From a virus, in the IMG/VR virus record IMGVR_UViG_3300005264_000064, positions 1 through 64,000 of that record: a stretch of DNA of 64,000 bases. One strand, 5' to 3'. The position numbers and the translations under genes are program-made. Under the pieces are notes generated by a model. The model made no database searches, was not told where the DNA came from, and saw nothing but the letters and a program-made list of their open reading frames with translations. This document shows, one piece after another, positions 11,164 through 64,000 of this stretch; the stretch's first letter is position 1, and each line of letters opens with the position of its first letter.

Positions 11164-11172
11164 AGGATTAAT

Positions 11173-11453: not shown

Positions 11454-11502
11454 GGGTCAACGAATCACCGTGTATACGGACTCGAATTTAAAGTGAAAAG
11501 GA

Positions 11503-11802
11503 ATGATAATGTGTATCATTAACCAAGAAGCTGTAACATCAAGACCAGTAGAGTATTGGTTAGAGCAGGCAGGATGTTTAGAGAGATTGCAGAGTAATGC
11601 AGACTTTCAGACATTGATGAATGGGTATCTCGAGGATATGAGAGATACAGGAGTTGAGATGCTGGCAGGCATATCAGATGAACAGAGAAGTGAGGTTATC
11701 GAAGTACTCGTTGGAATTAGTTACCTTAGAGAACATCTACAAGATGTGAAAGAAATTGCCGAGAGTATCGAGCAAGATAGACTTGAAGGGGAACTAGAAT
11801 GA
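11503..11802 (+). CDS. N4 gp58-like small protein
   Basis: LERLQSNADFQTLMNGYL pattern, position between portal and scaffold. Confidence 0.55.
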   Translation: MIMCIINQEAVTSRPVEYWLEQAGCLERLQSNADFQTLMNGYLEDMRDTGVEMLAGISDEQRSEVIEVLVGISYLREHLQDVKEIAESIEQDRLEGELE

Positions 11803-31139: not shown

Positions 31140-31142
31140 ACA

Positions 31143-34100
31143 ATGGGAGAATGTAAAACACCTGAAGAAGTAAAGAAGTCACTACAAGCTGCGGGGGTCA
31201 AAGGTGACTCCCTCCAGCAGGCAATGATGATAGTGGATAAAGCGAATGTACTGGTAGCGAATGGGGAAGCAACTACGAAGAACATCGCAGCTAAAATAGA
31301 CGATGGTGTCAAAGCGCCATTCGTTAACCTAGGGCTGAAACAGGTTCATGTTAGCCGTGGTAGAGGAGTTGTTACCGCTCGTGTGCTATACAACTCAGAG
31401 AACCAGGATGTAATACTACAACTCAACAAAGAAGAGTACACGTTTGGTGCAGAGGATGATTTTACTAGTAGACCGAGTAAGGCCAGTGGTAGGACTATCA
31501 GAGCCAAAGGAGTAGCAGCCCTCAGGGATGAGGGGTACGGGATGTCTTCGAAGAAGGCAGGTAGTACAGTTGTTACAACTCCTGAAGGTCTTGTGAAGGC
31601 GATAGTTAAAGGAGTGTCACCGATTAACGTGATGACTCGTGCAGGTACCAAGGGGCTTAAAGAGGCCGGGTATGTACTTTCGAGTGGTATTACGTGGAAG
31701 CTTGCGGATGGTACTAGTGAGAAGAAGGAGGCACTTGCTGACAAGGGTGTACCCATTACTCCGCGTACTGAGGTGTATCAATTAGGTGTTGACTTCCTCC
31801 AAAGTGAGAAGAATAAAGCAGTGCAGGTGTTGGTCGATGAAGTTGCTAGAGTTAAAGTTAAAGAATTTAGTAGTGTGTTCGGTGCGATTAGTGACTTAGA
31901 GACTTTCACGGTCGTGAGGCCCGGTGACAAAGAGTTCAGAGCAGAGTGGCAAGTGTTGCAGGACATTAGTCCAGAAGCTGGGGGTGTACTGTACACTCTG
32001 AGTGCTGTCAACAAAGTTGCCCATGCTAATGGCAGTAATGAAAGATTGCCTATGTACGTAAAGGTCGACGGTGTTGCTAGTGAGTTACTGGGGATTGTTG
32101 TGAGAGATGGCAGTATTAAGTACGTCGTAAAGAGCAAAGTGGTTAAGTATGTTGATGGTGGAGCGCTGAGTACCGATGAAACAAAGACTGGGAAAGAGCT
32201 TTCGGGTGGAAATGAGGTGTGGGTACTAAAGCCTAAGAACCTTAAAGACGTCGAAGGCCTTGTAGGTAGTGGTAGTGCGGAGACAGCCGAGTTGGAGAGA
32301 AAAATACAAGAGCAGTTGACGACATCGATGTTCGGGATGAACAATGCACTGAAGCCGGAGGCGTTTAAAGAGCTAGCTAGTAGAAATGCTGTAGAGTTTG
32401 AGAATGATAAGACCGCTGAGGGTATTGTCAATGTCAGTAATAACGGTAAATTAAAAGTATGGGTTTACAGAAAGAACAGCAAGGACAGCGAGGGCAATCA
32501 TAAGTTGGCTGGTGTAGTTGAATCAGAATATGCTGTTGGTGATAAGGTTGTGCTGAGTGATAAGTGGAAGAACGGCGAGATAAGGGTTGATAAGTACAGT
32601 GAAATACTGGAGAGTAACGATGGGGCTCCTGTACTGTTTAACACTAGTAACAGTAAGAAGAAGTGGAAGAAGAGCGGTTTTAAGCAGAGTAAGTATAGGC
32701 ATAAAGATGTAGTGGATAATAATGGGTTAGTGGAGCTGGCTAGGGAGTTGCAGGAGGCGTCAAAGACGGATGTTGGAGTAGAACATCAAGAACACCTCAT
32801 CGAGGTGCTGGGGCGTATTGCTGGGGCACATGTGATGGAAGAGACGGACGTGTACTTGAGTAAGAGTAGTACGAAGAATGGGATGGTTGAAGGGTTCTAC
32901 AACTATGTAGAGAAGAAAGGTATGAAGGCTGGTGTGTACTTGACGGATAGTGGGATGGTTAATACTGACGGTGATATGAGTATGTTGGAGACGTTCGCGC
33001 ATGAAGTAATACATACTATTGAGAAGACGGGGTTGTCTTTGAGTAGTCCTAGAGTGGTGCAGATTAGAAGAGAACTTGAGGCGATGCGTGAGTACATTAT
33101 GGGTAAATACGATTATACTATGTTGCTGGATGACAGCGAGACTGCCAGTAGGAGGGCTAAAAGGAAGGCGAAGGCTACTTGGGAGTACATGGTTAGTGAT
33201 AATGGGCTGCATGAATTTGTGGCACTCGGGTTGACTAACGAGAAGCTTGCGTCGAAGCTGAAAGATGTTTCGTACAAGGACGTGAAAGACGCCGGTGTGA
33301 ACAGCGTATTTGGTAAACTTATGCAGATTTTTGCTAGGACTGTTGAGGCAGTGCTTGCTGTGATTAAAGGTGAGGTGCCGTTAGGGCGTAAAGATAGCTT
33401 TGAGGCGTTGCTACATATGAACATTGAGTTAGGGAAGATATCTAGAAATACTAAGAGGAGCAGTGTAAAGAATAACCTTAACACCTTGAGGAATACGCTT
33501 GATAAAAAAGTAAGTAATGCAATTAGTAAGTTACTGAAATCAGATAAATTGGGTACACTCGGGCTGGAGAGTATAACTAGTAAGCCTAAGTGGTTGAGAC
33601 CTTTCTTCCTTATACCTAAATTGGGTAAGTTACTGGCGTTGGGTGATGTAGGTAAGGGTACGCTGTACTATGCCCTAGACGCTATTGGTCTAGACACTGG
33701 CGGAGCATTCCAGATGTTGTTGAGGAACTTTATTACCCCGGATGACTTGGATAAGACAGTAGAGAAGTTGGGATTGTTGTCCGCTAATGTAGATACACAG
33801 AGATCTCAGATTATTAAGGATATGACAGCGAATGTTAAAGGTGAATTAGGTAAAGATATAACTGATAGGATTGAAGAAGATTTAGGTAGGGTGCTTGTTA
33901 TGGGTGACCTGCAGGCATTACTCGGTAAGTTTACGCCTAAGCAGATTAGTGCCCTTATAACTAACGACAGTAAGCTTGAAGAAGCTACTAAGAAATATAC
34001 AGATGAAGTGTTTAAAGGTGCTGGTAATAGAGGTAACATGGTGTATAACCAAGCTAAAGGCTTGGCGTATTTGATGTATAGCGGTAAAGGGAACGAGGCG

Positions 34101-36338
34101 CAGTTACCGAATGCTAGGGCGATTGTGGACGGTTTCGGTACAGCTGGGCATAAAGTTAATAGAGCTCCTAAGCTGACTAAGAGCGTTGATGTGTTGGTAA
34201 GTTTGAAGGCGTTGAAGATGCTTAAAGAGGATATTGACCCGAGTACCATTATGTATATTGAGAGTAACCCGGATGCGGTTAAGCATGTGTTGTCTGCGAT
34301 GAAGTATCATGAAGAGAACTTCTCTGGGGAGTTATTTAAAGAAGATAACTACAATAGAGTTAAGGGACATGCTGCCGAGGTCGCTAATAGTAACGTTGAG
34401 ATTAGATTTGGGCTGCTTAGTGATGAAAAGAAAATGAAGGCTAAAGGCTTTACGAAAGTTAAAGAGCTGGAGAGTAGGGTTGGTAAGGGTAAGGTAGCCG
34501 TGTACGTAAACAAGTTTCCTACTGACGCGTCGTTTACTAAGCAGGCAATTAGGTTGACTGATACTAGTAGAAGAGGTACAGATATTGAAACTATGTTGAG
34601 TAACAGCTATGATGATGAGACTCAGACGTTGATGATTGATAGTTTTAAGGCTAAGGTTGAACAGCTTACTAGTGATCAGTGGGTGTCGGATAGCACTGTG
34701 TACAGAAAGCTGATTGGTGAAATGGCTAAGAATGTGAAGAAGGACTATGAAGTGAAACGTCGTAAGTTGTTGAAGGCTTACAATGGGGACTCTAAGGCTT
34801 TTGATCGTGAGAGTGTTAACGATGGCTTTATGCCGACGTTTACTAAGGAAGGTAAGGTTGCTACGTATAGATTGCAGATGAACAGAGAGATGAAAGAAGA
34901 CCTGTTGAATTTGGATACTAAGGTTAGTAGGCTAGTTGGGCATACGTTCGGGCAGACTATGGATGTGCTGGAGACTATGAAACAGAATAAGCGTACTATT
35001 GATGTTATTGAAAGGGATATGAGGGCTAACTACAGACTTGGTAGTAAGTTTGGTAAGAACAGATTTAAGTATAAGCTAATAAAACCTATGCAAGCTGCTA
35101 AAGGTGAGGAGATAGGTTATTGGGAGATGCTGCCTTACGCGGCTAAGGAGAGGTTTAAAAAAATCGCATCAGCTCAGTACAAGAAAGCACTTAGAGAGTA
35201 CATGCCTAAAGGGCTACGTAAGGGCTCGGCGGAGTATAACGTGGAGGCTGAGAAGATTAGGGAGAAGTACTACGGGGTACCGATTAGAGAAGATTTGGCT
35301 AGGTATTATCTAGGTGAGAGATCTATGAGTGTTGCTAACACTAGACTGGTGAAGATGTTACCAGCAGCTGTTCAGAAGAATATAGCTAGGGCAGGTGCTG
35401 TGTGGGTTGACATTGTGCAGATTGCTAAGACGAATATTATTGCTAAGCTGCCGCAGGTTGTTGTAGGGAATGGTATATCGAATACTGTGCTGATGGTTCA
35501 GTACGGAGTACCTGTAACGAAAGTAGTGTCGTTACCTGCGAAGGGGGTTAGCGAGTTACACAAGTATAGAGTTAACGTGAAGAAAATTCGTGCTATAAAT
35601 GCAAAGATGACGACTGCGACAGCGAGAGAGAAAAGTAGGTTGACAATTGAAAGAAAGAGATTGGAAAATGAGAATAAGGATAACTCGGCTGAGTATTTGA
35701 TTAGAAATGGTGGATTTTTAGGATTGGTTGAAGAATTGGCAGAAGAGGATAATGCGTACAGAAATCATCTTGTGAATGCGTTTCACGGATTAGTAGGTAA
35801 GATGCCTAATATTGCACAGACGTTGGTTAATTACCTGACGTTGAACAGCAAGACGGCGCCTTTTCAGTTTATGGAGAAAGCGATACAGGAGCATGACTTT
35901 GCGACTGGGTACGCTATATTTATGCACCTCTATGGTCAGAGGTTGCTGGAATTTGAAAAGAGTAAAGGCAGTAGAGCTACGACTGCGGAACAGAATAAAA
36001 TTCGTGATGAAGTATTTATTACTTCAAAAGTGGCGACTGTGCTGTATAGTAAGTTGGATAATAAGTACGTGAAGTACCTGAATGATACTGGTCCGGTGAT
36101 CTTTACTAAATTTGCTGTAGGTGCGAACAGAGTTATTAAGGAACTGACTGAGAAACATCCTGTGAGTGCACTGATGACTATGGGGGTTCAGACAGTACTA
36201 CCTGTCGATGATATGTTAGACCACTCCATCATAGAGACAGACTGGACTAACTTAGTTAACACACCGAGTGACATTCTTGATAGCGCGTTTTACACTATCT
36301 TTGAACTGCCTGATGATATTAAAAGTGCTTTGAGGTAG
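31143..36338 (+). CDS. Large virion protein with HExxH motif, probably equivalent to the N4 vRNAP C-terminal region
   Basis: 1731 aa, TFAHEVIH and LHEFVALGLTN, own RBS 3 nt after the vRNAP stop. Confidence 0.6.
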   Translation: MGECKTPEEVKKSLQAAGVKGDSLQQAMMIVDKANVLVANGEATTKNIAAKIDDGVKAPFVNLGLKQVHVSRGRGVVTARVLYNSENQDVILQLNKEEYTFGAEDDFTSRPSKASGRTIRAKGVAALRDEGYGMSSKKAGSTVVTTPEGLVKAIVKGVSPINVMTRAGTKGLKEAGYVLSSGITWKLADGTSEKKEALADKGVPITPRTEVYQLGVDFLQSEKNKAVQVLVDEVARVKVKEFSSVFGAISDLETFTVVRPGDKEFRAEWQVLQDISPEAGGVLYTLSAVNKVAHANGSNERLPMYVKVDGVASELLGIVVRDGSIKYVVKSKVVKYVDGGALSTDETKTGKELSGGNEVWVLKPKNLKDVEGLVGSGSAETAELERKIQEQLTTSMFGMNNALKPEAFKELASRNAVEFENDKTAEGIVNVSNNGKLKVWVYRKNSKDSEGNHKLAGVVESEYAVGDKVVLSDKWKNGEIRVDKYSEILESNDGAPVLFNTSNSKKKWKKSGFKQSKYRHKDVVDNNGLVELARELQEASKTDVGVEHQEHLIEVLGRIAGAHVMEETDVYLSKSSTKNGMVEGFYNYVEKKGMKAGVYLTDSGMVNTDGDMSMLETFAHEVIHTIEKTGLSLSSPRVVQIRRELEAMREYIMGKYDYTMLLDDSETASRRAKRKAKATWEYMVSDNGLHEFVALGLTNEKLASKLKDVSYKDVKDAGVNSVFGKLMQIFARTVEAVLAVIKGEVPLGRKDSFEALLHMNIELGKISRNTKRSSVKNNLNTLRNTLDKKVSNAISKLLKSDKLGTLGLESITSKPKWLRPFFLIPKLGKLLALGDVGKGTLYYALDAIGLDTGGAFQMLLRNFITPDDLDKTVEKLGLLSANVDTQRSQIIKDMTANVKGELGKDITDRIEEDLGRVLVMGDLQALLGKFTPKQISALITNDSKLEEATKKYTDEVFKGAGNRGNMVYNQAKGLAYLMYSGKGNEAQLPNARAIVDGFGTAGHKVNRAPKLTKSVDVLVSLKALKMLKEDIDPSTIMYIESNPDAVKHVLSAMKYHEENFSGELFKEDNYNRVKGHAAEVANSNVEIRFGLLSDEKKMKAKGFTKVKELESRVGKGKVAVYVNKFPTDASFTKQAIRLTDTSRRGTDIETMLSNSYDDETQTLMIDSFKAKVEQLTSDQWVSDSTVYRKLIGEMAKNVKKDYEVKRRKLLKAYNGDSKAFDRESVNDGFMPTFTKEGKVATYRLQMNREMKEDLLNLDTKVSRLVGHTFGQTMDVLETMKQNKRTIDVIERDMRANYRLGSKFGKNRFKYKLIKPMQAAKGEEIGYWEMLPYAAKERFKKIASAQYKKALREYMPKGLRKGSAEYNVEAEKIREKYYGVPIREDLARYYLGERSMSVANTRLVKMLPAAVQKNIARAGAVWVDIVQIAKTNIIAKLPQVVVGNGISNTVLMVQYGVPVTKVVSLPAKGVSELHKYRVNVKKIRAINAKMTTATAREKSRLTIERKRLENENKDNSAEYLIRNGGFLGLVEELAEEDNAYRNHLVNAFHGLVGKMPNIAQTLVNYLTLNSKTAPFQFMEKAIQEHDFATGYAIFMHLYGQRLLEFEKSKGSRATTAEQNKIRDEVFITSKVATVLYSKLDNKYVKYLNDTGPVIFTKFAVGANRVIKELTEKHPVSALMTMGVQTVLPVDDMLDHSIIETDWTNLVNTPSDILDSAFYTIFELPDDIKSALR

Positions 36339-40894: not shown

Positions 40895-43800
40895 TTAGAA
40901 TTCGAGTTCACAATTGCCTCCGGAACAACCGGATGATCCTAGAGTGTCCACATCAACGAATTTCTTTGCTGAGAGGTGTGTTGTCCAGTTAATCTCGGAT
41001 GCTGTTGACGTTATTTTCCACCACTTGTGGAGGTTGTAAACGTCTTTGAGGCAGTTGGCGCATTGGTCTTCTGAGTCGAAGTTAAATGCGAATTTCTTGA
41101 AGCGACGTACGAAGTCTCTTTTTAGGAGATCTTTGTGGTCGTCTGTTAGAGTTTCACCATAACCTAAGCATGTACTGATTGCAGTCCACAAGTCATTGTT
41201 GAAGGCAGAAAGTCCTGCTTCAATGAGGGCTGATGTGAATAGTGCTGGTTGGCCATAGGTTTCAACGATTTGCTCGTGTGTGAATACCTCTGTGAACGGT
41301 GCTTGTGGGTACGCCCTATCTCCTGCTGCTGATAGGAGTGATACTCCGCAGAGTGAGCGACGGTTTTCGTAGATGTAGTCTGTAACAGCATCCCAGTCGT
41401 CTACTGTTATCGTGTTTGAGACGTTGTGTTTGAGGAATGGTTTAACGCACAGGTCGTGGTTTGTTCCATGCTCGATCCAGTAGTCTTGTGCTAATTTAAC
41501 GTATTCTAGCTGCTTTACACCTAGTAAGTCTGACTTGTAAATTGAGCCTTCGATAGGTTCGATTGGAAACCCTATGGTGTAGTCTAACGAAGACCATACT
41601 GATGTCTCTACCATAGAGGGGTTTGTTGCTGCGAATAGCTGTCCTACTTCTGTCTCCTTGTTCATTTGAACGTGACGGATGTACCGTGGCGAGTGTTCGC
41701 CATGAATGCCTGATGCAGTGCCTAGAAGGACACTAGCGTTGCCGCTGGGCTTCACGCAAGTTACTCTTGCTGCTTGGTTGATACCTATTAATGCTGCTAC
41801 TGTTTTATTCCAATACTTAACCTCATTTGCACCATCAATCATGTTCTTTTTGTCGAATAGAACCTCTGGGTTGTTCATCCATCCAGTAACCCCGACACCT
41901 ATTAGGGCTTCACGGTCGACGATTTCCTTAGTAGCTTTTGAGACATACGAGAAGTCCGTATAACCCGCCTGTAGTGTACCGATAATGGCACCTGCCTTAC
42001 ATTGAGCTAAGAATTTTTCTCTAGTCGTACTTAAGCTACCATTCAGTTCTGAAAGGTTGCACATCTGGAATCCTGACCTGCCATCCGGGGTGTACCCTTG
42101 CATACCAATTTCGACGCAAGGGTTGAAGAGAATGTCTAGGTCGTCTGTCCAAACAAAGCCAGGTTCACCAGAATGTTTAACTGACTCCATAATAGATGTG
42201 AATTGTTCCTTAGTAGTATCAGAGCGGAGTAGTACTGCTGAATTATTACTACGTCCTCTTTGTGAGGCTTTTTCCCACCAGTCTCCTGTCTTACATGTAA
42301 TCATATCTTGGTCGTCGGCGGAGAACATGCAGATAGTGGCTGCTCTTCGTACTCCTCCTGAGATTACCGCATCTGCTATGTGCATGACACAGTCATAGGC
42401 TGCTAGTGTTGTTAGGCGAGTTTGACCGTTGCTTAAGAGTGACTTGATTAAATTCTCAATTTTGTCTAGTGCTTTACGTAGTGGTTCTGGGCCAGGTGCC
42501 TTGAAGCCTCCTGAGATCTCAGCGCCTTTTGGGCGAATTTGTGATAGGTCAAAGTAGACGGGGTGTCCGCTGTTAGGTTGATCGACGAAGAAGGAATTCA
42601 TCAGGGCTTGAACTGCGTCAGCCCACCCTTCAATTGAGTCGTCTACTATGTGGTTGATAGGTGTACCTGAACGTTTAGCTATAGCTGGGAGTTTGGCAAT
42701 GTGTTGCTTTTGCACTGAGAAGCCGACACCGCAGCCGCATAACATCAGCCAGAAGCACTCGCCGAAGAAGTCTGGGCGATCAAGGTAGGATGCTGTGCAG
42801 TTACCTGTCACTATCCCGCCTTCTAGAAGGAAAGAATGGTCGTCTTCTACTTCAAGGCACCAAACTTCTTCAGTCCCTAGGGGACTGATATCAGTAACTT
42901 TAGTTACTGCTGAGGTCTTTCCTCCTGGATGGTCTTTTATAGTGAACTTAATAGTGTACGGGCGTATGCCATAGTTAGTGACTTGATTTGTCAATTCTGT
43001 CTCACTAGTTATAGTAATACCAGCTATCGGAAAGCACTTTCTGATGAAATTGATGTGTTCTAAATCAGAGGCTTGTATAGAGGTATAGCGTTTGCCAGAC
43101 TTGTTTTTAGCCTTCTCACCATCTGCTTGTAAGTAACCTGCAACAAATGCACGGATTAGACGTGGTTCGTCTACTGAAGGGTCTGGGGAAGTTTTCTTAT
43201 ATGTCCCGGTGTAGGCATAAAAATCCCCAGCAAGAGACTCAGTAGTGGATGTTTTGAAGCCTAGGCGACTGAAACGCTCAGCGAATTGCTTATCATGACC
43301 ACATAAGCGGATGTGAGAGTGCTTGCCGTTTATGGCTCCGTCCCCGTAGACTAAACCGTATAGCCAGTACTTTTGTTCGTCTGTTGGCGCTGTGTCGAAG
43401 TTAAAATCTCCGAAATAGTCAAACGGCTTTAGTAGTTTGTCTCCTACGGCTAATGCTGTAGTGTCTGTGCCATCAGCGAGTAACCATCTGTGGTCTTTCG
43501 TGACTTGTTTAGTGTAAATGTTTGTCCCACGCTGAATAGTTATTGAATACAACTGCTGAGTGCCGTAGTTCTTGACTACTGCTTTTTTCCAAGCACCAGT
43601 ATGTGTAAGTACTCGAATGTTGGCTCCATCTACAAAGTTGTTGAAAGATCTGAGGCCTTCTGAGGTTACAAAAGTTGTATTAGCTGAGAAGCAGTTATAC
43701 ATCTTTGCGTTCTTGCTTAAGAGTTGCTCCCCTCCGAATTGAAGAGCTCTTTGAGCACCTAGTATTTCCTTGTTAGTGTATGCGTCTTGAGCATACTGGA

Positions 43801-43969
43801 TTAAAGACTCAAGTTCCGGTGTCATTACTGACTTGTAGCGGGTGCGATGCATCTGCATTACACGAGCGACAGCCTCAGGCCACGTTTCATAGCGGCTGAG
43901 GTTATTGTCGTATCTAGCATATGACTCATAGAACTTGGCGTCTGCCATGAGCTGTGCTGTCTTAGTCAT
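40895..43969 (-). CDS. nrdJ: Ribonucleotide reductase (class II NrdJ-like), intein-containing
   Basis: GCGVGFSVQ, GGVRRAA, NPCVEI, CNLSE, CVKPSG, C-terminal CSGGNC. No nrdB in the window. Confidence 0.75.
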   Translation of the reverse strand: MTKTAQLMADAKFYESYARYDNNLSRYETWPEAVARVMQMHRTRYKSVMTPELESLIQYAQDAYTNKEILGAQRALQFGGEQLLSKNAKMYNCFSANTTFVTSEGLRSFNNFVDGANIRVLTHTGAWKKAVVKNYGTQQLYSITIQRGTNIYTKQVTKDHRWLLADGTDTTALAVGDKLLKPFDYFGDFNFDTAPTDEQKYWLYGLVYGDGAINGKHSHIRLCGHDKQFAERFSRLGFKTSTTESLAGDFYAYTGTYKKTSPDPSVDEPRLIRAFVAGYLQADGEKAKNKSGKRYTSIQASDLEHINFIRKCFPIAGITITSETELTNQVTNYGIRPYTIKFTIKDHPGGKTSAVTKVTDISPLGTEEVWCLEVEDDHSFLLEGGIVTGNCTASYLDRPDFFGECFWLMLCGCGVGFSVQKQHIAKLPAIAKRSGTPINHIVDDSIEGWADAVQALMNSFFVDQPNSGHPVYFDLSQIRPKGAEISGGFKAPGPEPLRKALDKIENLIKSLLSNGQTRLTTLAAYDCVMHIADAVISGGVRRAATICMFSADDQDMITCKTGDWWEKASQRGRSNNSAVLLRSDTTKEQFTSIMESVKHSGEPGFVWTDDLDILFNPCVEIGMQGYTPDGRSGFQMCNLSELNGSLSTTREKFLAQCKAGAIIGTLQAGYTDFSYVSKATKEIVDREALIGVGVTGWMNNPEVLFDKKNMIDGANEVKYWNKTVAALIGINQAARVTCVKPSGNASVLLGTASGIHGEHSPRYIRHVQMNKETEVGQLFAATNPSMVETSVWSSLDYTIGFPIEPIEGSIYKSDLLGVKQLEYVKLAQDYWIEHGTNHDLCVKPFLKHNVSNTITVDDWDAVTDYIYENRRSLCGVSLLSAAGDRAYPQAPFTEVFTHEQIVETYGQPALFTSALIEAGLSAFNNDLWTAISTCLGYGETLTDDHKDLLKRDFVRRFKKFAFNFDSEDQCANCLKDVYNLHKWWKITSTASEINWTTHLSAKKFVDVDTLGSSGCSGGNCELEF
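42800..43693 (-). mobile_element. Intein (298 aa) with LAGLIDADG homing endonuclease
   Basis: Starts CFSANT after YN and ends VWCLEVEDDHSFLLEGGIVTGN before Cys. LAGLIDADG-like WLYGLVYGDG and FVAGYLQADG. Confidence 0.9.
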
Positions 43970-55431: not shown

Positions 55432-56144
55432 ATCTGTCTCTTTACTTGGACTACTTCGAAGGATGGTAGTAGGATAGCTGTGAGGTACCCGCGATGGCGA
55501 GTGTCGTAACAGCAACCTGTGTCGAGGTTAAGGGTGTTATGTTTATATTCGGCTGTTGGTGGTTGAGTGTAAGTGTTAGTATATTTTCCTTGCTTCCAGT
55601 AATCGACTGGTGTGTGGCCGAATACGTTGAAGTAAAGTTGCTTGCGAGGTCTAGTGGAGCGGTTCCATGTTGACGGTTCATCGAGTAAGGTGTGCTGACG
55701 GCAGGCGTCGTCATGGATAGCAAAAAGTCCCGTAATGTCAGTGTGCGATACAATGATTGGTAGGCCTTCTGACGTGACATGGCCAGTGTTAATTGCTAGC
55801 GGGAGAGTTTTGAAGTATTCTATGTCGGAGTACAGCTGTTGCATGTCGTCGGAGTATGACCGTATACAAGTACCACCGCCGTTGGTATACCATGGGGTGT
55901 ACTCTATGTCAGCGGATTGGAGTGCGGGAGAGTCCTGAATGGCCATGAGCTCATGGTTGCCAACTACACATTTGTAGTTGTTGTCACGAAATAATTTGAT
56001 TACTTTAGCGGAGTCAGGGCCTCTGTCGATGAGATCTCCTACAGCGACTACGTTTGTTGTTGTGAGGTCTACTTTAGTAAGGAGCTCTTGTAATTCAGAA
56101 AAACATCCGTGGATATCTCCGATGATTAGCGTTTGTCGTTTCAT
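55428..56144 (-). CDS. Ser/Thr protein phosphatase (PPP/ApaH-like)
   Basis: GDIHG, GDLIDRG, GNHE, FGHTP, LDTGC. Confidence 0.9.
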   Translation of the reverse strand: MKRQTLIIGDIHGCFSELQELLTKVDLTTTNVVAVGDLIDRGPDSAKVIKLFRDNNYKCVVGNHELMAIQDSPALQSADIEYTPWYTNGGGTCIRSYSDDMQQLYSDIEYFKTLPLAINTGHVTSEGLPIIVSHTDITGLFAIHDDACRQHTLLDEPSTWNRSTRPRKQLYFNVFGHTPVDYWKQGKYTNTYTQPPTAEYKHNTLNLDTGCCYDTRHRGYLTAILLPSFEVVQVKRQI

Positions 56145-56440
56145 CTTTTTTCCTTATAGAGCTGACATATTAATTTTGTCGTGTCGTGTACTCTTGCTTT
56201 TGACCACCAATATGGGAGGTCTAGTGATCCTAATCCGTAACGTAACCACAGGACTTGCCCAAAGAAGGTGTCCTTGAACATGTGGTCTTTACTGAGGTCG
56301 TACTTGCAGAGGAACTCCAGGGCTTCTGCTGCTGAGGCCTTGCGCCAACGGTACGTGAGTAAGCCTGGGGATTCCAGTGGTACTTTCTCTTTTACCATGA
56401 GTACTTGTTTACAGAATCCCTGTTTAAACATATATTGCAT
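56141..56440 (-). CDS. Hypothetical protein
   Basis: ORF coupled to both neighbours. Confidence 0.5.
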   Translation of the reverse strand: MQYMFKQGFCKQVLMVKEKVPLESPGLLTYRWRKASAAEALEFLCKYDLSKDHMFKDTFFGQVLWLRYGLGSLDLPYWWSKARVHDTTKLICQLYKEKR

Positions 56441-56442
56441 GA

Positions 56443-56592
56443 TTAGCCTTTGATATTGAGGATGGGCACCACTCTGTCTAGGACTTCTACTAGGTCGGAC
56501 TGGTTGTTCATAACCTCGAAGATGTTTTTGTAGGCTAGAGGCGCCTCGTCTAAGTTGCTGTCTGAGTGGTTTGTTGCTAGATCTGGTCTCAT
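56443..56592 (-). pseudogene. rtcB: RtcB RNA ligase C-terminal remnant (49 aa, not in ORF track)
   Basis: AAGGAG RBS, MRPDLATNHSDSNLDEAPLAYKNIFEVMNNQSDLVEVLDRVVPILNIKG. DEAP.AYK and terminal IKG are RtcB signatures. Confidence 0.75.
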
Positions 56593-56632
56593 TTAACTCC
56601 TTTGTAGGTATTGTTTCTATCGTAACCTGTAG

Positions 56633-58876
56633 TTAAAATCTTCTAATTTGCTTAAGTATAGTTTTCTCTAGACGTTCTTCGCTTAATGGGGATACCCAGA
56701 AGTCGTTGATGTCTTTGACTAAGTCGATGATTTCTTCTACTGAAGCACCTAATTCTTTGGCATGGTGTGCTGCTGAAATTAGTCGACGAGATCCCTGTCC
56801 GTCAGGTGCGTCGTAGGCATAGTTGAATGTTGCCATAGTGTCACCGAGGGCTGAGGTTTTCTGAGCTGCTGTTAGGGCCTTCGTTGTTGAAGGATTCTTC
56901 GCTGTGTCGTTAGCGTGCATAATGTGGTCACGTACCTTGATCGGTGAGGCGTCTGTTACGGACAGTACTGGAGATGTCGAGTACGAGAAGAATATCTGTG
57001 ACTGAGGTAGTGGATCTACATTAAGAGCTAGCTCACGAGCTATTGACTTGTAGAACGGAATCCATGCGTCGCTGTCTAGGGTGACGACGGCTTCTAATTC
57101 GACAATGACACGAAACTTAAAGTTATTTTCAGGGTCTGACGATAGGGCCACGTGGTGGTTGATGTCGGATAGAATGAAGTGAGCTTCGTCGGCGGTTATT
57201 GTGGAGTCATCGATGTCGAGGACTAGCCATTTGGTACCTGGTAGGAGGTTGTCCTTATTTCGGATACCATCCTTGAAGCGGTACGGACTATAGGCAAAGT
57301 CTCCTTTTAAGAGGTCACCTAGTTCAGCGAACGTTGTTTCTGCTACCTCGAGACCGGAGTTTGCTGTAGAGGCTACCTTATTTTTGGCAGCGTCGATTAG
57401 CTTTTTGTCTTTAGTAGGTACTGCATTGAATATAGGGGTGTTATCTATTTCTTTATAGGTAATGTTGATTGCCGTTACTGGTTCAATGCCTTCATACGTA
57501 ATGCCTGTTTCTGATGCTGTATAAACACCGTTAACATCGTAAGAAGCTGATAGGTGACAAAGATCTCGTAGTTTTTCGATCATGCGTCCTACCCCGTTTA
57601 TGTACCCTAATTTACGTAACATGTGCAGAGATGCTGTAGATTGGTTGTTAACTGCGTTTGCTCGCATATAGTCGGAGAATAGTTGATATGGCTCTTTGAT
57701 GAGTTCGTTTTCGAAATTTGATAAGTCGTCAGCTAGTAGTTCACAGAAGTTGATGGCATGGACATAGTCTTCTGGCTCAATGCGGTCGTGTTGATTGTAG
57801 AGGGCGTAAGCACCTGCCATTTTAAGTGCCTTCCATTGCATATGTTCACGTGAAATTGTAGCTATTGGGTGTAAGGGTGACATTGTAAGCGCAACTTCCT
57901 GGTTGTAACGTTTATACGTGGCGAATAAGAAACGTACCTTAGGGTTTACTTCTAGTGGTTGTCCTAGATGTTTTAGTCCCCACTCAGTCACTATTTCGAC
58001 ACCAGTATTTACTACGGCACGTGCCTCTAGGGCTTTGTCGTCTATTGCAATTTCTGCTTGTATCATCTCCTCGTTGCTTGTGTAATGTACGAGTGGCATT
58101 TCCTCAGGGTTGAAATTGAAGAATGAACGTCTAGCGAGGCGGTTGGAAAACTCCTCACGAAAGAGGTTCTTGGATACCTGGCTTTCGAGTAAGTTTGCCT
58201 GAGAGCCTGCGAATACTGCTGATACAGGAAGGTTGCGGATAGAACGTCCTTGCTCCTCCTTGGCTCCAATTAACTTGACTTCCTTGTGGCCCGTGTCATA
58301 GACTTCTGACATAAAAAGCATAAGTTCTTTGGCGTTTCCTGATGCAAGTTCGCTTGTTACTTCACCAGTGTAGATAAAACCACCGCCGATACCGGAGTCT
58401 TCAAGGTCATTGAAGTGCATAGTCAGACCCTTGATTGAGGATGCTGATGATGCAATGATGTCTTCTGGTTGTCTATAGAACTCTTCATAGTTTTCTGGTG
58501 CTCTAGGGTTGTCAACTCCTGCCTCCATGGCTCTACGGATTGCAAGGTTTGTTGCTTCTACTTGTCTGCGAGACTCTAGTTGGTCGTAGCCTGATTTGAA
58601 GCATTTACGTGCTGCGTTGATTGAGGAGTCTTTTCCTTTTCCCGACTTTGCAAATATGAAAGTTAGGCAGTTGACGGGGATTAGTCCGCCATCCCAGTGT
58701 TGGATATTGCGGCGTAGATGAGATGCAAACAGCATTGCTTCTGTTGCAGCGATAGTTAATTTCATTCGGTGAGGTATTGCTGCAGGAATAGCCTCTGCTA
58801 CTTTGGTGACTATTGGTGCATATGTATTTGACAAAGCTCCTGCTTTTAGAAGTTCGTCTCTTGTTATATCTAGCAT
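56633..58876 (-). CDS. Primase/helicase-type replication protein (P-loop domain plus prim-pol-like C-terminus)
   Basis: AKSGKGKD P-loop, WLVLDID, KFRVIV, helical PriCT-like end. Confidence 0.6.
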   Translation of the reverse strand: MLDITRDELLKAGALSNTYAPIVTKVAEAIPAAIPHRMKLTIAATEAMLFASHLRRNIQHWDGGLIPVNCLTFIFAKSGKGKDSSINAARKCFKSGYDQLESRRQVEATNLAIRRAMEAGVDNPRAPENYEEFYRQPEDIIASSASSIKGLTMHFNDLEDSGIGGGFIYTGEVTSELASGNAKELMLFMSEVYDTGHKEVKLIGAKEEQGRSIRNLPVSAVFAGSQANLLESQVSKNLFREEFSNRLARRSFFNFNPEEMPLVHYTSNEEMIQAEIAIDDKALEARAVVNTGVEIVTEWGLKHLGQPLEVNPKVRFLFATYKRYNQEVALTMSPLHPIATISREHMQWKALKMAGAYALYNQHDRIEPEDYVHAINFCELLADDLSNFENELIKEPYQLFSDYMRANAVNNQSTASLHMLRKLGYINGVGRMIEKLRDLCHLSASYDVNGVYTASETGITYEGIEPVTAINITYKEIDNTPIFNAVPTKDKKLIDAAKNKVASTANSGLEVAETTFAELGDLLKGDFAYSPYRFKDGIRNKDNLLPGTKWLVLDIDDSTITADEAHFILSDINHHVALSSDPENNFKFRVIVELEAVVTLDSDAWIPFYKSIARELALNVDPLPQSQIFFSYSTSPVLSVTDASPIKVRDHIMHANDTAKNPSTTKALTAAQKTSALGDTMATFNYAYDAPDGQGSRRLISAAHHAKELGASVEEIIDLVKDINDFWVSPLSEERLEKTILKQIRRF

Positions 58877-58896
58877 AGGATTCCTTTATTTTATTT

Positions 58897-59123
58897 ATGT
58901 AATTAAATGGATAGTACACGGTACTGAAAAATTTCTGAAGGAATTGGTCTCCAGGTGTTAACATGTGCTGCCCATAGTGGTGTCCAAACAATTTAGAATA
59001 AATTGTTCGGGGAGCCACGGTTGGGCAGCACATGTTAGTGAATAGCGTTGTGTTACATAACCGATGTAGGCTACTACACTATCCGGTGTGCTTATTCTAC
59101 CGATACTACCCATTTAATTACAT
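58897..59123 (-). ncRNA. Retron-like msr-msd cassette B
   Basis: Terminal arms 58897-58923 / 59098-59123, unpaired G at 59097, core 59057-59075, 16-bp perfect stem 58959-58974 / 59022-59037 with an inner 9-bp stem. Confidence 0.8.
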
Positions 59124-59334
59124 TACTGCTACCAGAAACCTACACGTACGAGACTAGCTCTATGCTAGACATGTGTTGAACTGCATTGAACCTGAGAGAT
59201 CTCTCGTAGAGTAGATTCTGGGTTCATTCAGTTCAACACATGTGGTCATAAGCAGTTTATAGATAGCCGATGGAGGCTACTCCACTTACGTGTGTGTTGT
59301 TTATTTCTACGTGTAGGCTTGTGGTAGCAGTAAT
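59122..59334 (-). ncRNA. Retron-like msr-msd cassette A
   Basis: 27-nt arms 59122-59148 / 59308-59334 (25 WC plus 1 G-U), unpaired G at 59307, core 59263-59281, 15-bp perfect stem 59169-59183 / 59229-59243. Confidence 0.8.
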
Positions 59335-59336
59335 TG

Positions 59337-59461
59337 AGTCCTGCTGAACTGTAGGCATACCCTGGCTTTCTCCCGTCTACAGGATTTTAAGAATATGTGT
59401 AACGGAGTATGTACACCGCCTATTGTGGTCGGATCTCTGTTACAAAGAATTTCCAGGAACT
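59337..59461 (-). ncRNA. Structured spacer (two hairpins in a closing stem) between RT stop and cassette A
   Basis: Hairpins 59349-59382 and 59398-59443, imperfect closing pairing 59337-59349 with 59451-59461. Confidence 0.4.
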
Positions 59462-59471
59462 GTTAGTTTGG

Positions 59472-60215
59472 TTATCTGAGAGCTCTTGGTAGTAAGAGTC
59501 TTGACGAGGTGACTAAACCTCCGAGTGATGGACCATTTCTTTGGTGTCTGGCACATCTGATTTTCTTACGTATTTTTCTGGTAGGTGAAATACCTTCTGA
59601 TCCTACCATGACTCCTAGAATACGACGGTTGCCGAATTTGGCGTGATGTATACGGGTTTTAGCCGGGTTGATGGTAAGTCCGTAGTCTGACATGACCTCG
59701 GTGACTATTGCTATTGCTTCGTTGAGTTTTGTATATGACGAAGGCGGAAAAGATAGTTGGATATCATCGGCGTATACCGTAAGTTTGTAGTCTGTATAGT
59801 ATATATCGAATATGTCGCAGATTTCTTTTACCGGTGTAAGTAGATATATGTTTGCAAGCATAGGAGAGGTTGCAAAACCTTGTGCAAGAGTACCATCCGT
59901 GTGGGAAAAATGCTCAGGGTTTTCTAGAGGTACGTTAATGGCATCTATTTTGATTGTGTCGAAACAATTAGATATGTCGAGGCCGATAGTATGGGCGTAG
60001 CCTATGTGCTGGATAGCTGCTGTTACACAGTTCCTGTCTTTGATGAATCCATGGAAAATTTTGTTGTCTCCGAAAAGTTGCGTTTCTCTTGAGTTAAATA
60101 GTGCTGACAACGTTGGTAATATGTTACGCTGTGTAGCTAGCAGATCTGCGTCAGGTGCACATATTCTACGATGTTTGCCGTTCTTTTTCTTTATAGTAAA
60201 TTCACGGTATGTCAT
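59472..60215 (-). CDS. Retron-type reverse transcriptase (compact, 247 aa)
   Basis: YREFTIKKKNGKHRRICAP, HGF..AAIQH (NAxxH-like), LDISNCFDTI, LAQGFATSPMLAN, YADD, INPAKT, ILG (VTG-like). Confidence 0.9.
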   Translation of the reverse strand: MTYREFTIKKKNGKHRRICAPDADLLATQRNILPTLSALFNSRETQLFGDNKIFHGFIKDRNCVTAAIQHIGYAHTIGLDISNCFDTIKIDAINVPLENPEHFSHTDGTLAQGFATSPMLANIYLLTPVKEICDIFDIYYTDYKLTVYADDIQLSFPPSSYTKLNEAIAIVTEVMSDYGLTINPAKTRIHHAKFGNRRILGVMVGSEGISPTRKIRKKIRCARHQRNGPSLGGLVTSSRLLLPRALR

Positions 60216-60224
60216 GTATGTCCT

Positions 60225-61460
60225 TTATTCGGGGTATGCTTCTTCGTGGTATTTCGCTAGTTGTTCGTCTGTGAGATTAACAAGGATAGCTTTATCTACA
60301 CCTATTGCGAGTAGCTCTTCTTGCATCACAATCTTGTCATACTCACGTACTGCTAGCTCGTCGTTGATTTCTTCGTAGCCTTCTAATATTGTTGTAACTA
60401 AATCTTTGCGTGAATAGATACTGTAATCGGTATAGTCCAGGTTAAAGAAGTCGTCTATCGTATGTGCCGCGGCATATAATTTTTCTAAAGGTAGTTGCTC
60501 TAGCTCAGAGAGTTCATACATCTTTGGCACATCTGGTCGTTTTACACTCATTCCTGGTAGTTGTGGAGTTTTAAGCCAGCTGCCTGCGGAAGTATAACGG
60601 AACGTAGACGGTGATATTGCCTTCTTTGTTACGTGCTTAGGGTTAATTAAGAGAAGCGGTAATAGAGTAGTTTGTAGGATGGAAACCAAGGCTGTGTTAT
60701 GGGTTTCCAATAAGGCCGAATTCTTAGCTCTAATTTCGTAGGGTGTATCTTTGCATTGTCCTAGTAACCTTTCTACTGTACTCAGTTGTATGGGTACTCC
60801 CAGTGCTATAGAGTGACAGCGTGCTTCTGTATACGTTGTAGTAGACTCTGTTGAGTTTACGATGCGATACTCTGTGTGCGCTAAGTTGCACTGCCCATTG
60901 TCGATAGCCATAATTGATGCAAAATTCGGTGTTAGGTTACCGGATGTTAATGGGTATACTATACCTGGCTCAGTGATCGTACGGTCTAGATCTGTACCAG
61001 AGAATGATTGTCGCGCAGAGCCTCCAGGATGTCTGTGGATACTGTTGACTGTTGATGTTACAGGTGTGAATTTTACGTTGAACAGATCTTCTAGTTGCTG
61101 CTGGAGGGATGTACCCAATAGCTTAGTTACCTGAGTAGTGTGTACTGGTCTTATTTTCTCTGATGTGGCTTTGACGTCTTTTAATTCGAAGTCGATGTGT
61201 GCACTAGTTACCTGTTGTGGGTAATTGAAGAATACTGTCGGTACTGCGACGTCGAGTATTGAGTCGTCGGCTGCTATGTGCCTGAAGACTAGAGCGTAAT
61301 AGTGCACTTGGAATTCGTTGGAAATTGCTGCAGGGCCTGACCGTGTGTAGATTTCCTGTAGGGTTGCTTGGTTTAAGAGTAGAACTCCTTGATGACGTGA
61401 TGACTCGTAAGTCTGGAAGGTCTTCTTAGTCTTCTGTTGTGGTGGTATTATTGGCTTCAT
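60225..61460 (-). CDS. JAB/JAMM (MPN+) metallopeptidase domain protein
   Basis: NEFQ (catalytic Glu) and IHRHPGGSARQSFSGTD = HxH-x-S-x2-D. Confidence 0.75.
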   Translation of the reverse strand: MKPIIPPQQKTKKTFQTYESSRHQGVLLLNQATLQEIYTRSGPAAISNEFQVHYYALVFRHIAADDSILDVAVPTVFFNYPQQVTSAHIDFELKDVKATSEKIRPVHTTQVTKLLGTSLQQQLEDLFNVKFTPVTSTVNSIHRHPGGSARQSFSGTDLDRTITEPGIVYPLTSGNLTPNFASIMAIDNGQCNLAHTEYRIVNSTESTTTYTEARCHSIALGVPIQLSTVERLLGQCKDTPYEIRAKNSALLETHNTALVSILQTTLLPLLLINPKHVTKKAISPSTFRYTSAGSWLKTPQLPGMSVKRPDVPKMYELSELEQLPLEKLYAAAHTIDDFFNLDYTDYSIYSRKDLVTTILEGYEEINDELAVREYDKIVMQEELLAIGVDKAILVNLTDEQLAKYHEEAYPE

Positions 61461-63039
61461 CGAATTCCTTTATGACATCCTGTAGTGGACGTAAGTATTT
61501 AGTTGTCAGTTTAGCGATCAGCTCAGCGCGGGCTACTTGTGCCATGCGGTAATTTTTAAAGAAGGGGTCTTTTAGAGTACTGAAGTTATCACAGGCAACT
61601 ACTTTAAAGTAACCAGAACCGACGTATATTGTAGTAATATCCGTTGAGGCCATGTTATCTTTAAACAATTGTTCAAAACGTCTTTCTGAGATTAGTGCGG
61701 GGACCTCCAGTTCTATGACATAGTGTTCGTCTTCATCTGTGTACTTTAAGCTTATTTCTTGCTGAGTGTTTGGTTGTAGCTCCAGGTAAGCGTGTATCTC
61801 TTTGTGGTAGTATGCTGCTTGTAGTGTTGTGCAGTCTTGTAACTTTTTAAGTTGGATAATAGCTGCGGCAGGACTGTTGTTCTTGAAAACAGCTATGTGC
61901 TCGGCTGGAAAAACTACTGGAGGAGTGGGTTCTTTTACTATCGGTGTGTAGTCTTCTATGTAACCTGCTTTGTGGTAAAGGAACATCGAGGTATCAATGC
62001 ATTGGTCAGCGTATAGAAGAGCTCCTGGTCGTATCAGTGTACGGTTTAGTGGTGAACCTAAGTATGAGTGATTGAGCGTTGAGAGTCCTTCAAGTGTTTG
62101 CTTCGATTGGCTGCCTGTACAGACGTTATTGAAGATTATGCGATTGTCGTCTGCTTGGATAGTTGAATATGATATATTTGCTGCTAGAAACGGGGTTATC
62201 TGGCAACACTCGCCGTTAGCGCCTGGAGTTAGACGGAGTATTGATGTTCCGTAATAGGGAGCAATGTTTCCTCTTGTTAGTAATTGGTGAGGAAGAGTGT
62301 AGTGTACTGCGGCTGGGTCGTAATATGAGTTGTAGTTCTCAGGTATGTCGACTGCTGGCACTGTCTTGACTACTGTTACTGATGTGCTATCTTTACTTGG
62401 TATTACATCTGTAATTTTAGAAGTGTCTAGTATAACTTCTGTGTTTTTCTTAGAAAGACGTAGTAAGTTGGTAACAGCTGTTGATACCTCGGCTACGGTA
62501 GTATTGTAGGACTTATACGTCTTATCCATTGCTTTTCTGTTAGGGTAGAAATAAACTAGGACTTTAAACTTTATGTTTGAATACGTAGATGTAGTTAAAA
62601 TAGCAGACGCTACCAGTGGGTGGAGTGGGTTAATCATAAGTGCTTTACTCTTTACACCCCGCAGTACTACACCGTAGAAGTTATTGCCGGCCTTTTTTAT
62701 TAGTGTATTTATTATAGGTATTGCTTCTTTGATGGTGTATTCACCATCGAGGGTTAAAATACTTTTTGTGATACTTGTGAAGAACGCTGTACCGTTTGAT
62801 TGTTCTGGATTGAAGTCTGTACCTAGTCGGCCGCGACTGACTGCTAAGCGCTTATAGACGTTTGTGTTTGTGTATATCGGAGTGATGGGTACACCCTTCT
62901 TATAGAACATCAGGGGCTCTTGGTTGCTGGGTTGTGCGCTGAAGGTAGGTACGGCGACTGCTTTTACAAACTCCTTGAACTCGGCTTTGTGCAGGCGTTG
63001 TATGAAAGTATCGCTAGTTCCGGTTATTTGATTATACAT
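61426..63039 (-). CDS. Putative prokaryotic E2-like protein
   Basis: TPFLAANI...FNNVCTGS recalls the catalytic Cys loop of prokaryotic E2 families. Lies between E1 and JAB. Start at MYNQ with AAGGA RBS. Confidence 0.45.
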   Translation of the reverse strand: MYNQITGTSDTFIQRLHKAEFKEFVKAVAVPTFSAQPSNQEPLMFYKKGVPITPIYTNTNVYKRLAVSRGRLGTDFNPEQSNGTAFFTSITKSILTLDGEYTIKEAIPIINTLIKKAGNNFYGVVLRGVKSKALMINPLHPLVASAILTTSTYSNIKFKVLVYFYPNRKAMDKTYKSYNTTVAEVSTAVTNLLRLSKKNTEVILDTSKITDVIPSKDSTSVTVVKTVPAVDIPENYNSYYDPAAVHYTLPHQLLTRGNIAPYYGTSILRLTPGANGECCQITPFLAANISYSTIQADDNRIIFNNVCTGSQSKQTLEGLSTLNHSYLGSPLNRTLIRPGALLYADQCIDTSMFLYHKAGYIEDYTPIVKEPTPPVVFPAEHIAVFKNNSPAAAIIQLKKLQDCTTLQAAYYHKEIHAYLELQPNTQQEISLKYTDEDEHYVIELEVPALISERRFEQLFKDNMASTDITTIYVGSGYFKVVACDNFSTLKDPFFKNYRMAQVARAELIAKLTTKYLRPLQDVIKEFDEANNTTTTED

Positions 63040-63047
63040 GAGGATCC

Positions 63048-63998
63048 TTAAAAATTGTTTGCTTCGGTTGTTGTCATTACGAGATTGTTGTGGTCTAACT
63101 GCCAATGGTAGTTACGATCCGGACGGAGTTTTAGTGTGCCGTCGAATTCGAAATCCATGATGTGTTTATCTGCTTCATGTAAGTCTTGGTCTGAGGCTAA
63201 TAATTTTAGTAGCTCGATCGTCATTTGTAATTGGTTCATAAAGAATGATCCAAGTTGTATGATGCCGTATGTCTCAATTTGGAGATCCATATTTTGTTTA
63301 GGGTTAAGCCAAATTGAACATGACGTGTTGGCATGAGTTGCGCAGATTAAGGGACCAATTTTTGCAAGTTCGTCCCTGTACTCGATTCCGGGTGCGCCGT
63401 ATAGTACTGTGTTATCTACTACGTGCTCTGTTGGGTGTCTCTTTACTATTTCTGAAGATATATATTTCTTTGCTGGTAAGTATTGTTCGTGTATTTCTAA
63501 TGTTCTTGAACCGAGGTTTTTTAGTAGAGGGGTAATAAGCTGTATTTTGTTCAGGTTGCCTCTGGGTATGTTATAGGCAGAACTGTCTAGTGGGAAACGC
63601 AGCATGTTAGAATACTCTACAGATTCTTTTTCGAATACTGCTACTTTTGAAAATATTTTATAGGTGCTTGTCAGCTTTGTTAATTCTGATAGCCAATAAG
63701 CTGTGTTCATTCCGGTACCCCCCGCCCCAAGAAATACGAAGTTTAACTTCTTTCTTTTGACTTCTGTCAGTAGCTGTTTAATGTCCTTTAGGGTGTACCC
63801 GAGAACTCTAAGTAGCTGGTCTGTAGGGACTTTTTTTACGTTTAGATACTCTGCTACAAATGGTGAGATAGCTACTGCCGTTGATGGTATATCGCTATTT
63901 TCTTGGATTTGTTTTTTGTCGCCGTTGTATCTAAACATTAATCGAGGAAAGAAGCTGTCCATTACTACGTTGGAAAGTCCTGACTTTGGTCTGTCGAA
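63048..63998 (-). CDS. ThiF/E1-like adenylating enzyme, 5'-truncated by window edge
   Basis: FVFLGAGGTG Rossmann loop, FEKESVEYSNMLRFP (D.D.VE.SNL.RQ-like), NK. Frame is open to the window end. Confidence 0.75.
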   Translation of the reverse strand, partial: FDRPKSGLSNVVMDSFFPRLMFRYNGDKKQIQENSDIPSTAVAISPFVAEYLNVKKVPTDQLLRVLGYTLKDIKQLLTEVKRKKLNFVFLGAGGTGMNTAYWLSELTKLTSTYKIFSKVAVFEKESVEYSNMLRFPLDSSAYNIPRGNLNKIQLITPLLKNLGSRTLEIHEQYLPAKKYISSEIVKRHPTEHVVDNTVLYGAPGIEYRDELAKIGPLICATHANTSCSIWLNPKQNMDLQIETYGIIQLGSFFMNQLQMTIELLKLLASDQDLHEADKHIMDFEFDGTLKLRPDRNYHWQLDHNNLVMTTTEANNF

Positions 63999-64000
63999 GA

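Follow-up and report, generated by a model that had tools for sequence, protein, structure and literature searches.

The marine sediment metagenome virus record IMGVR_UViG_3300005264_000064, a complete N4-like phage genome of 103 kb (102,937 bp, CheckV completeness 100), carries tightly spaced minus-strand genes for an E1/ThiF-like enzyme, a protein with an invariant cysteine (the middle protein), a JAB/JAMM peptidase and a retron-like reverse transcriptase (RT). Analysis of its bases 1–64,000 (the window) and of related loci favored, with a probability of about 0.5, the presence of two separable adjoining modules: module A for ubiquitin-type peptide conjugation, and module B consisting of an autonomous retron-like RT and RNAs encoded downstream from it. 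The conserved operon of module A looks like a new version of the E1/JAB conjugation systems placed beside an autonomous retron-like module, and not like the E1-E2-JAB partner of a retron that an earlier note, made from the sequence alone, had proposed.

The packing of the four genes, their spacing and the motifs quoted in the earlier note were reproduced from the open reading frames (ORFs) and their translations, with the correction that E1 runs past the window end and reaches 537 aa in the full record. The E1 stop and the ATG of the middle protein were separated by 8 nt, the middle-protein and JAB genes overlapped by 35 nt, and the RT ATG followed the JAB stop by 9 nt. An AAGGA box was located 6–8 nt upstream of all three starts at these junctions (3/3). 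The ATG of the middle protein is common to its homologues, and a TTG at 63105 is an unlikely start. E1, the middle protein and JAB matched no Pfam, NCBIfam, PHROG or PADLOC model, and their identities were therefore drawn from family alignments and structure. Among 50,697 GenBank phage records, the region had no DNA match, and E1 and JAB had no tblastn match; literature searches found no paper describing an E1-middle protein-JAB operon.

To score the four proteins across relatives, we used hidden Markov models on 8 viral and 30 metagenome loci carrying E1 and on 13 viral loci carrying the RT. All 38 related loci of sufficient length kept the order E1, middle protein, JAB. The RT directly followed JAB, at a spacing of −4 to +21 nt, in about seven lineages (this phage, L014, the L015–L023 group, L028, L032/L056, L044/L045 and L046), confirming that the close placement of a retron-like RT behind JAB recurs. 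No adjacent RT was present in about 11 lineages (L003/L042, L005, L006, L007, L008, L009, L010, L024, L026, L030 and L035), one of which, L003/L042, encoded an RT of the same family (44% identity) 4.6 kb beyond JAB. Whole-record searches of five operon-bearing genomes (G002 and G003, both 100% complete, and G004, G007 and G008) returned no RVT_1 match. Conversely, no E1 or JAB was found in three genomes with the RT family (G011 and G013, both 100% complete, and G009), while the positive controls G014 and G015 were recovered. Since the operon and the RT family each occur without the other in complete genomes, the RT is a neighbour of the operon and not its obligate partner. Such independent occurrence, seen here in both directions, is the pattern that the earlier note had itself named as speaking against its proposal. 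In RT-less loci JAB was followed by ordinary replication genes in varying order; the genes upstream of the RT in operon-less phages were unrelated to one another, and in the loci examined no constant effector or other protein neighbour travelled with the RT outside the operon.

The RT matched RVT_1 (1.6e-20) and PADLOC retron RT models (up to 4e-32), and scored 84 bits against the NCBIfam retron St85 RT model with its cut-off of 235 bits, remaining below every NCBIfam retron cut-off. The protein, 247 aa long here and up to 331 aa in relatives, kept the YADD and QGxxxSP motifs. Retron RTs typically carry NAxxH and VTG motifs, at the sites of which this RT has AAxxH and ILG. Motif 4 distinguishes the RTs of diversity-generating retroelements, and that identity was ruled out by the QGxxxSP sequence at motif 4. 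A strongly conserved family block N-G-P-S-x-G-G-L-x-T-x-S-R, for which no counterpart among known RT motifs was recognized, was noted after the thumb-like region at the RT C-terminus (window 59472–59560, minus strand). Among species-representative genomes, the nearest cellular relatives of the RT came from metagenome-assembled genomes of Bacteroidia (L057 and L058, 28–29% identity), which may point to hosts among the Bacteroidota for these phages.

The region behind the RT gene (58877–59471) folded into two abutting closed domains with a minimum free energy of −228.8 kcal/mol compared to −135 ± 6.5 kcal/mol for shuffled sequences (z −14.4). The corresponding gaps of two distant relatives gave z of −13.4 and −9.2, and the gap sequence was shared, with variable stems, among L015, L017, L018, L020 and L023. 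A non-coding gap of 0.3–1 kb followed the RT in nearly all loci and was very strongly structured wherever it was folded, whereas the loci without RT had almost no gap after JAB. On this basis, the RT together with its RNAs acts like a single self-contained insert that in most cases precedes the primase gene; the order of RT/RNA module and primase seen here was also found in L017, L018, L020, L023, L028, L032 and L046. An Rfam scan of window positions 56000–64000 gave no match. The structured region seems to encode candidate template RNAs of the RT in a putative tandem array, which would make the RT, together with the RNA array behind it, a self-contained phage module open to separate study.

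Within module A, the E1/ThiF assignment was borne out by conserved ThiF motifs and ThiF structural neighbours. The E1 homologues are mostly 450–500 aa long. Twenty relatives shared GxGGTG followed by F-E/D-x-E/D-x-x-E/D-x-S/T-N-x-x-R-F-P, YGAP, ATH...C and ESYG..L..FFMNQL; in this alignment G312, G314, G315, T316, N352, R355, F356 and P357 were invariant, and Cys448 was near-invariant. The first two blocks correspond to the ThiF nucleotide loop and arginine motif, represented here by GAGGTG and FEKESVEYSNMLRFP. All family-bearing neighbours of an ESM Atlas model of E1, itself of low confidence (predicted local distance difference test, pLDDT, 0.51), were ThiF/MoeB proteins aligned over residues ~290–514, with template modeling scores by target of 0.60–0.72 for compact ThiF families and lower values for two longer fusion families. 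The window protein did not reach the threshold of Pfam ThiF (PF00899); among 20 E1 relatives, ThiF was the sole Pfam family matched by more than one (two relatives, best E 0.018). Against PDB sequences, a profile search weakly aligned the E1 motif to SNLNRQ of the ThiF-type protein 9egc (E 1.1), and hhalign of the E1 core against Cap2 E1 domains gave P 0.003. We accept a ThiF-like fold for E1 on these alignments and modeled neighbours.

The JAB protein combines an N-terminal MPN domain of ~240 aa with a variable helical C-terminal part. H142, H144, P145, S154 and D157 were invariant, and E49 near-invariant, in 33 sequences; the JAMM spacing was x9 in this protein and the canonical x7 in shorter homologues. 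No Pfam or NCBIfam JAB model matched it. In a Foldseek search of its AlphaFold model (pLDDT 86) against the PDB, the best 50 of the 61 matches with E ≤ 0.001 were all JAB1/MPN-domain proteins (top E 2.5e-5, probability 1.00), and the listed matches included the Jab1 domain of Prp8, CSN5, Npl4, Rpn8/Rpn11 and the BRCA1-A complex. By its motif and predicted fold the protein is a JAMM peptidase with an intact motif, in agreement with the earlier assignment. In several relatives (L003 at 10032–11748, likewise L004, L027, L042, L048 and L049) the JAB gene was broken at HxH into ORFs of 144 and 308 aa; a 109-aa ORF between the L003 halves (10493–10822) may represent an intron or homing element within the catalytic motif. 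On the metagenome contig L024 (2005–4224) the middle-protein and JAB genes were each present as three short ORFs, reflecting either operon decay or sequencing errors.

The protein between E1 and JAB, in the position of an E2, belongs to a large family: grouping at 50% identity gave 382 clusters, of which 331 scored below 1e-10. In 54 distant members, the residues G123, N137, P261, Y263, N288, C307 and S329 were invariant and H140, Q252, T308 and G309 near-invariant. The packing of an E1 and a JAB into one operon, here with an invariant-cysteine protein between them, bears out this part of the earlier note. Here and in E1 and JAB, the quoted motif residues are invariant or near-invariant across the family alignments, and the motifs are therefore not due to chance. 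The protein consists of an N-terminal alpha/beta domain, a central core built as a beta meander and a helical C-terminal extension that some family members lack, and the structural model was confident over residues 40–420. The predicted order of elements in residues 182–357 (a helix, four to five strands, the N288 loop, C307, then helices) would suit the ubiquitin-conjugating (UBC) fold. An invariant Cys with upstream Asn and His in an HPN-like manner is present (C307, N288 and the near-invariant H140); the 14–19 residues between N and C exceed the spacing in UBC, and the His lies 170 residues upstream.

Searches aimed at the fold of the middle protein returned little. A Pfam scan of 88 members (34 + 54) found no E2 family, Foldseek of the model against the PDB gave no match with E ≤ 0.001, profiles of the JAB and middle-protein families matched no PDB sequence, and ESM Atlas offered no usable feature match. 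The listed matches of a wide VIA search were short and helical (residues 373–428 and 496–533) and barely covered the core. The hhalign comparison with seven Cap2-type E2 (Prok-E2_B) domains from bacterial genomes gave probabilities of 0.1–0.4% in a test of low power, its E1 control reaching only P 0.003. As a guess at function, E2 is reasonable for this protein, on an unproven fold and with Cys307 as a candidate thioester acceptor.

The earlier note saw no modifier gene and suggested that one might lie beyond position 64000. A conserved peptide with an SG-plus-tail end was indeed found upstream of E1, but it is too short for the beta-grasp protein envisaged. Of 23 relatives' loci whose upstream sequence was usable, 22 had the peptide ORF (38–50 aa) immediately ahead of E1. 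It is also present in the window genome, where a genome-specific HNH homing endonuclease gene separates it from E1; this HNH gene looks like a recent mobile insertion into the operon. The peptides share an N-terminal amphipathic helix, a Thr/Ser-rich stretch and K/E-S-G followed by 1–9 unconserved residues, and the peptide of this genome ends in KSG plus the tail VHPN. In 21 sequences the Gly was invariant and the preceding Ser near-invariant, and the tail length varied. Because an invariant Gly precedes a variable tail, and a JAMM peptidase and an E1 are encoded in the same operon, the simplest reading of the peptide is that of a putative modifier precursor trimmed to a C-terminal Gly. A predicted complex of E1 (195–537), peptide (1–42) and ATP scored 0.01, which carries no weight either way.

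A small alpha/beta protein of 85–105 aa (A6) is encoded ahead of the peptide gene in most loci, and translation of the peptide gene seems in most of them to be coupled to that of A6. The two genes abut or overlap by one base (ATGA type) in L002 and in the matching pairs of L003, L007 and L015, which suggests translational coupling and, possibly, a fused product generated by recoding. The A6 family search revealed no convincing family (ThiS in one member, E 0.11) and did not show a beta-grasp identity. As a candidate modifier A6 was ranked below the peptide, its C-terminal Gly not being conserved.

The complete module A reads small alpha/beta protein, peptide, HNH (in this genome), E1, Cys protein and JAB. 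In the proposed mechanism, the JAB peptidase would strip the tail of 1–9 residues that follows the invariant Gly, and the E1/ThiF-like enzyme would adenylate the exposed Gly carboxylate. The middle protein, playing the E2 role whatever its fold, would take over the activated peptide on Cys307 in thioester linkage. The final acceptor of the peptide would be an amine, with lysine residues of host or phage proteins as the likeliest sites, and JAB may also undo this link. In one phage branch module B sits between module A and the primase gene and is probably co-transcribed with module A, which does not need it. A bolder version, which we hold only as a doubtful possibility, describes N4-like marine phages with a new form of protein tagging, in which a Pup-sized non-beta-grasp peptide would be matured by a JAMM peptidase and attached to host or phage proteins by a ThiF-type E1 and a non-UBC Cys protein; in one branch this tagging would be wired to a multi-template retron-like RT, with tagging and RT-DNA production acting together in infection.

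Several points weigh against the two-module interpretation. Every chemical step of module A and its target are inferred. Neither sequence and profile comparisons nor Foldseek gave a significant E2 match for the middle protein, and the peptide falls far below the length of a beta-grasp fold, unlike every known ubiquitin-type E1 substrate. The adenylation activity of E1 is uncertain since the Mg-binding Asp that comes after the nucleotide loop and the fourth strand (DxxDN of ThiF/MoeB) is not evident; an invariant YGAP...R occupies this position, and an Asp follows in some members only. Modules A and B, when found in one genome, were adjacent in about seven of eight lineages, which could mean more than shared descent. 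In the E1 tree, most RT-bearing loci fell into one clade (support 94/95), so that the adjacency may reflect only 1–3 events; one RT-less locus was placed within this clade and one RT-bearing locus outside it.

An alternative reading takes E1, the Cys protein and JAB as the effectors of a retron of a new type, with multicopy single-stranded DNA (msDNA) restraining or directing them or receiving the modifier. It draws on the RT start 9 nt after JAB with its own Shine-Dalgarno box, on the recurrence of this placement in about seven lineages with E1 identities of 40–59%, on the near-constant adjacency of the modules when they share a genome, and on the normal pairing of retrons with an effector, as outlined in PMC7736814. 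This attractive idea is probably wrong. About 11 lineages had the entire operon, peptide included, and no RT next to it, two complete genomes with the operon were free of the RT, the RT family occurred in complete genomes lacking E1 or JAB, the L003/L042 RT was displaced from JAB by kilobases, and the clustering of RT-bearing loci mostly in one clade allows the adjacency to be inherited. Given that the operon and the RT are independent, that the RT carries its own structured RNA and that it keeps no constant protein neighbour without the operon, a new retron type with these effectors is improbable. A role in counter-defence, in which JAB, perhaps with E1 and the Cys protein, would act on host ubiquitin-like immune systems (Bil, type II of the cyclic oligonucleotide-based antiphage signaling system, CBASS, or Bub) by removing or hijacking their conjugates, appeared to be the least probable explanation. 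Bacterial E1/E2/JAB systems are described as acting in antiphage immunity (10.1101/2023.09.26.559546, 10.1101/2024.11.21.623953), and the module is phage-encoded amid replication and nucleotide-metabolism genes. A deconjugase alone would suffice for such a role, whereas a dedicated peptide and an activating enzyme are conserved together here, and the PADLOC models, those of Cap2 and Cap3 included, gave no match to E1, the middle protein or JAB.

Two further readings keep the peptide and change its fate, and both are unlikely. In a sulfur-carrier pathway, the peptide Gly would be adenylated and converted to a thiocarboxylate, Cys307 would relay a persulfide so that a nucleotide, a tRNA or a cofactor could be thiolated, and the carrier would be trimmed by JAB as it is in the QbsCDE and CysO/Mec+ systems. 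Sulfur-carrier pathways pair a ThiF-type E1 with a JAMM peptidase that removes the residues after a C-terminal Gly, and this pairing, the location of the operon in a nucleotide-metabolism/replication block and the near-invariant Cys448 of E1 would all suit such a pathway. However, the known carriers are beta-grasp proteins ending in GG, in contrast to the 38–50-aa peptide ending in SG, and no rhodanese, cysteine desulfurase or thiolation enzyme was present among the neighbours examined. If instead the small ORF encoded the precursor of a ribosomally synthesized and post-translationally modified peptide, its C-terminus would be modified by the E1-like enzyme in the manner of MccB acting on MccA, and the Cys protein and JAB would tailor or mature it into a free modified peptide instead of a protein tag. 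That pathway is at odds with the absence of a conserved C-terminal Asn as in MccA, with the Gly and variable tail that mark a Gly-exposing cleavage site, and with the lack of a transporter or immunity gene among the genes adjoining the operon; an exported antibiotic would also be of no obvious use to a lytic phage.

For module A read as peptide conjugation, close parallels are Bil (BilABCD) and Bub, likewise operons of an E1-like enzyme, a separate conjugating protein, a peptidase (JAB in Bil) for maturing or removing the modifier and a small modifier. In contrast to these systems, the modifier here has 38–50 aa, ends in SG and is not a beta-grasp ubiquitin-like protein, sequence and profile comparisons detected no UBC similarity in the middle protein, E1, the middle protein and JAB have no PADLOC, Pfam or NCBIfam match, and the operon resides on a lytic-type phage, not in a bacterial defence island. 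Bub works via oxyesters and a serine protease, according to 10.1101/2024.11.21.623953, whereas an invariant Cys and a JAMM peptidase mark the phage family. CBASS type II, with Cap2 (an E2-E1 fusion) and Cap3 (a JAB), similarly joins E1 chemistry to JAB without a beta-grasp modifier and activates the C-terminus of another protein; in the phage, E1 and the Cys protein are separate genes, and a cyclase and effector are absent.

The sulfur carriers (QbsC/D/E, CysO/Mec+, ThiF-ThiS and MoeB-MoaD) share with module A a ThiF-type enzyme and a JAMM peptidase exposing or freeing a C-terminal Gly. In module A, by contrast, the carrier would not be a beta-grasp protein, sulfur-donor enzymes are absent from the vicinity examined, and E1 and JAB flank a large invariant-Cys protein. 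Pup/PafA/Dop resembles module A in its small modifier (presumed disordered here), which contains a helix-forming segment and is attached to lysines of its targets through a processed C-terminus, but Pup is activated by a glutamine-synthetase-like ligase, not by an E1, and has no sequence relation to the peptide. MccB-MccA (microcin C) and PaaA-PaaP also combine a ThiF/E1-like enzyme with an adjacent short ribosomal peptide substrate; the phage peptide lacks the C-terminal Asn and the N-P nucleotide-adduct logic, and a JAB peptidase and a Cys protein accompany it. Module B is similar to retrons in the best matches of its RT to retron RT models and in the strongly structured RNA adjoining the RT gene. 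In contrast to retrons, this RNA lies downstream and not upstream of the RT, seemingly as a tandem array, the RT is short, and a constant effector is missing.

Bacterial E1/JAB conjugation has recently been tied to antiphage immunity, and its presence on a phage would show this chemistry in use by viruses as well. If true, a modifier as tiny as this peptide would widen what counts as ubiquitin-like, and three unannotated protein families, including the 382-cluster family in the E2 position, would gain a testable function.

Table 1. Features of the operon, the RT/RNA module and the adjoining genes (window coordinates unless another record is named)
Feature	Position	Strand	Basis
E1/ThiF-like adenylating enzyme, C-terminal two thirds	63048..64000, continues to 64661	minus	ORF, family alignment, structure neighbours
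GAGGTG Rossmann nucleotide-binding loop of E1	63711..63728	minus	translation, invariant columns
SNMLRFP motif of E1, counterpart of the ThiF SNLxRQ arginine finger	63591..63611	minus	translation, alignment
Middle protein ("E2-like" call), 537 aa	61426..63039	minus	ORF
Cys307 codon (VCTG), invariant, candidate thioester acceptor	62119..62121	minus	family alignments, translation
JAB/JAMM metallopeptidase (predicted), 411 aa	60225..61460	minus	AlphaFold model, Foldseek
JAMM block HRHPGGSARQSFSGTD, HxH-x9-SxxD	60990..61037	minus	translation, 33-sequence alignment
Putative catalytic Glu49 codon of JAB	61314–61316	minus	translation, alignment
Retron-like RT, 247 aa	59472..60215	minus	RVT_1, PADLOC, family alignment
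YADD of RT, intact	59763–59774	minus	translation
Structured non-coding region, candidate RT template RNAs	58877..59471	minus	folding vs shuffles
DNA primase, next gene after the RT/RNA module	56633..58876	minus	phrog_2135, 5e-93
HNH homing endonuclease, 295 aa	L002 5713–6600 = genome 64713–65600	minus	phrog_374, 1.7e-34
Peptide gene, 46 aa	L002 6657–6797	minus	ORF beyond window end
Small alpha/beta protein (A6)	L002 6799–7071	minus	ORF beyond window end

The assignment of the phage as N4-like goes with its genes for an N4-type virion RNA polymerase, a DNA polymerase and a primase; ThyX and ribonucleotide reductase are also encoded in the record. In the nucleotide-metabolism/replication block in which the operon sits, a DHH phosphoesterase accompanies ThyX and the reductase. 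Within the 1024-aa ribonucleotide reductase ORF (window 40895–43969, minus strand), residues 274–336 were endonuclease-like (phrog_4645, 5e-7), which may represent an intein or an inserted homing endonuclease. In window 23610–36338 (plus strand), similarity to N4-type virion RNA polymerase was located within a 1731-aa ORF (phrog_2206, 3.5e-111). A 2509-aa ORF with no PHROG match lies just ahead of it, so that the giant virion protein may be divided between these two ORFs.

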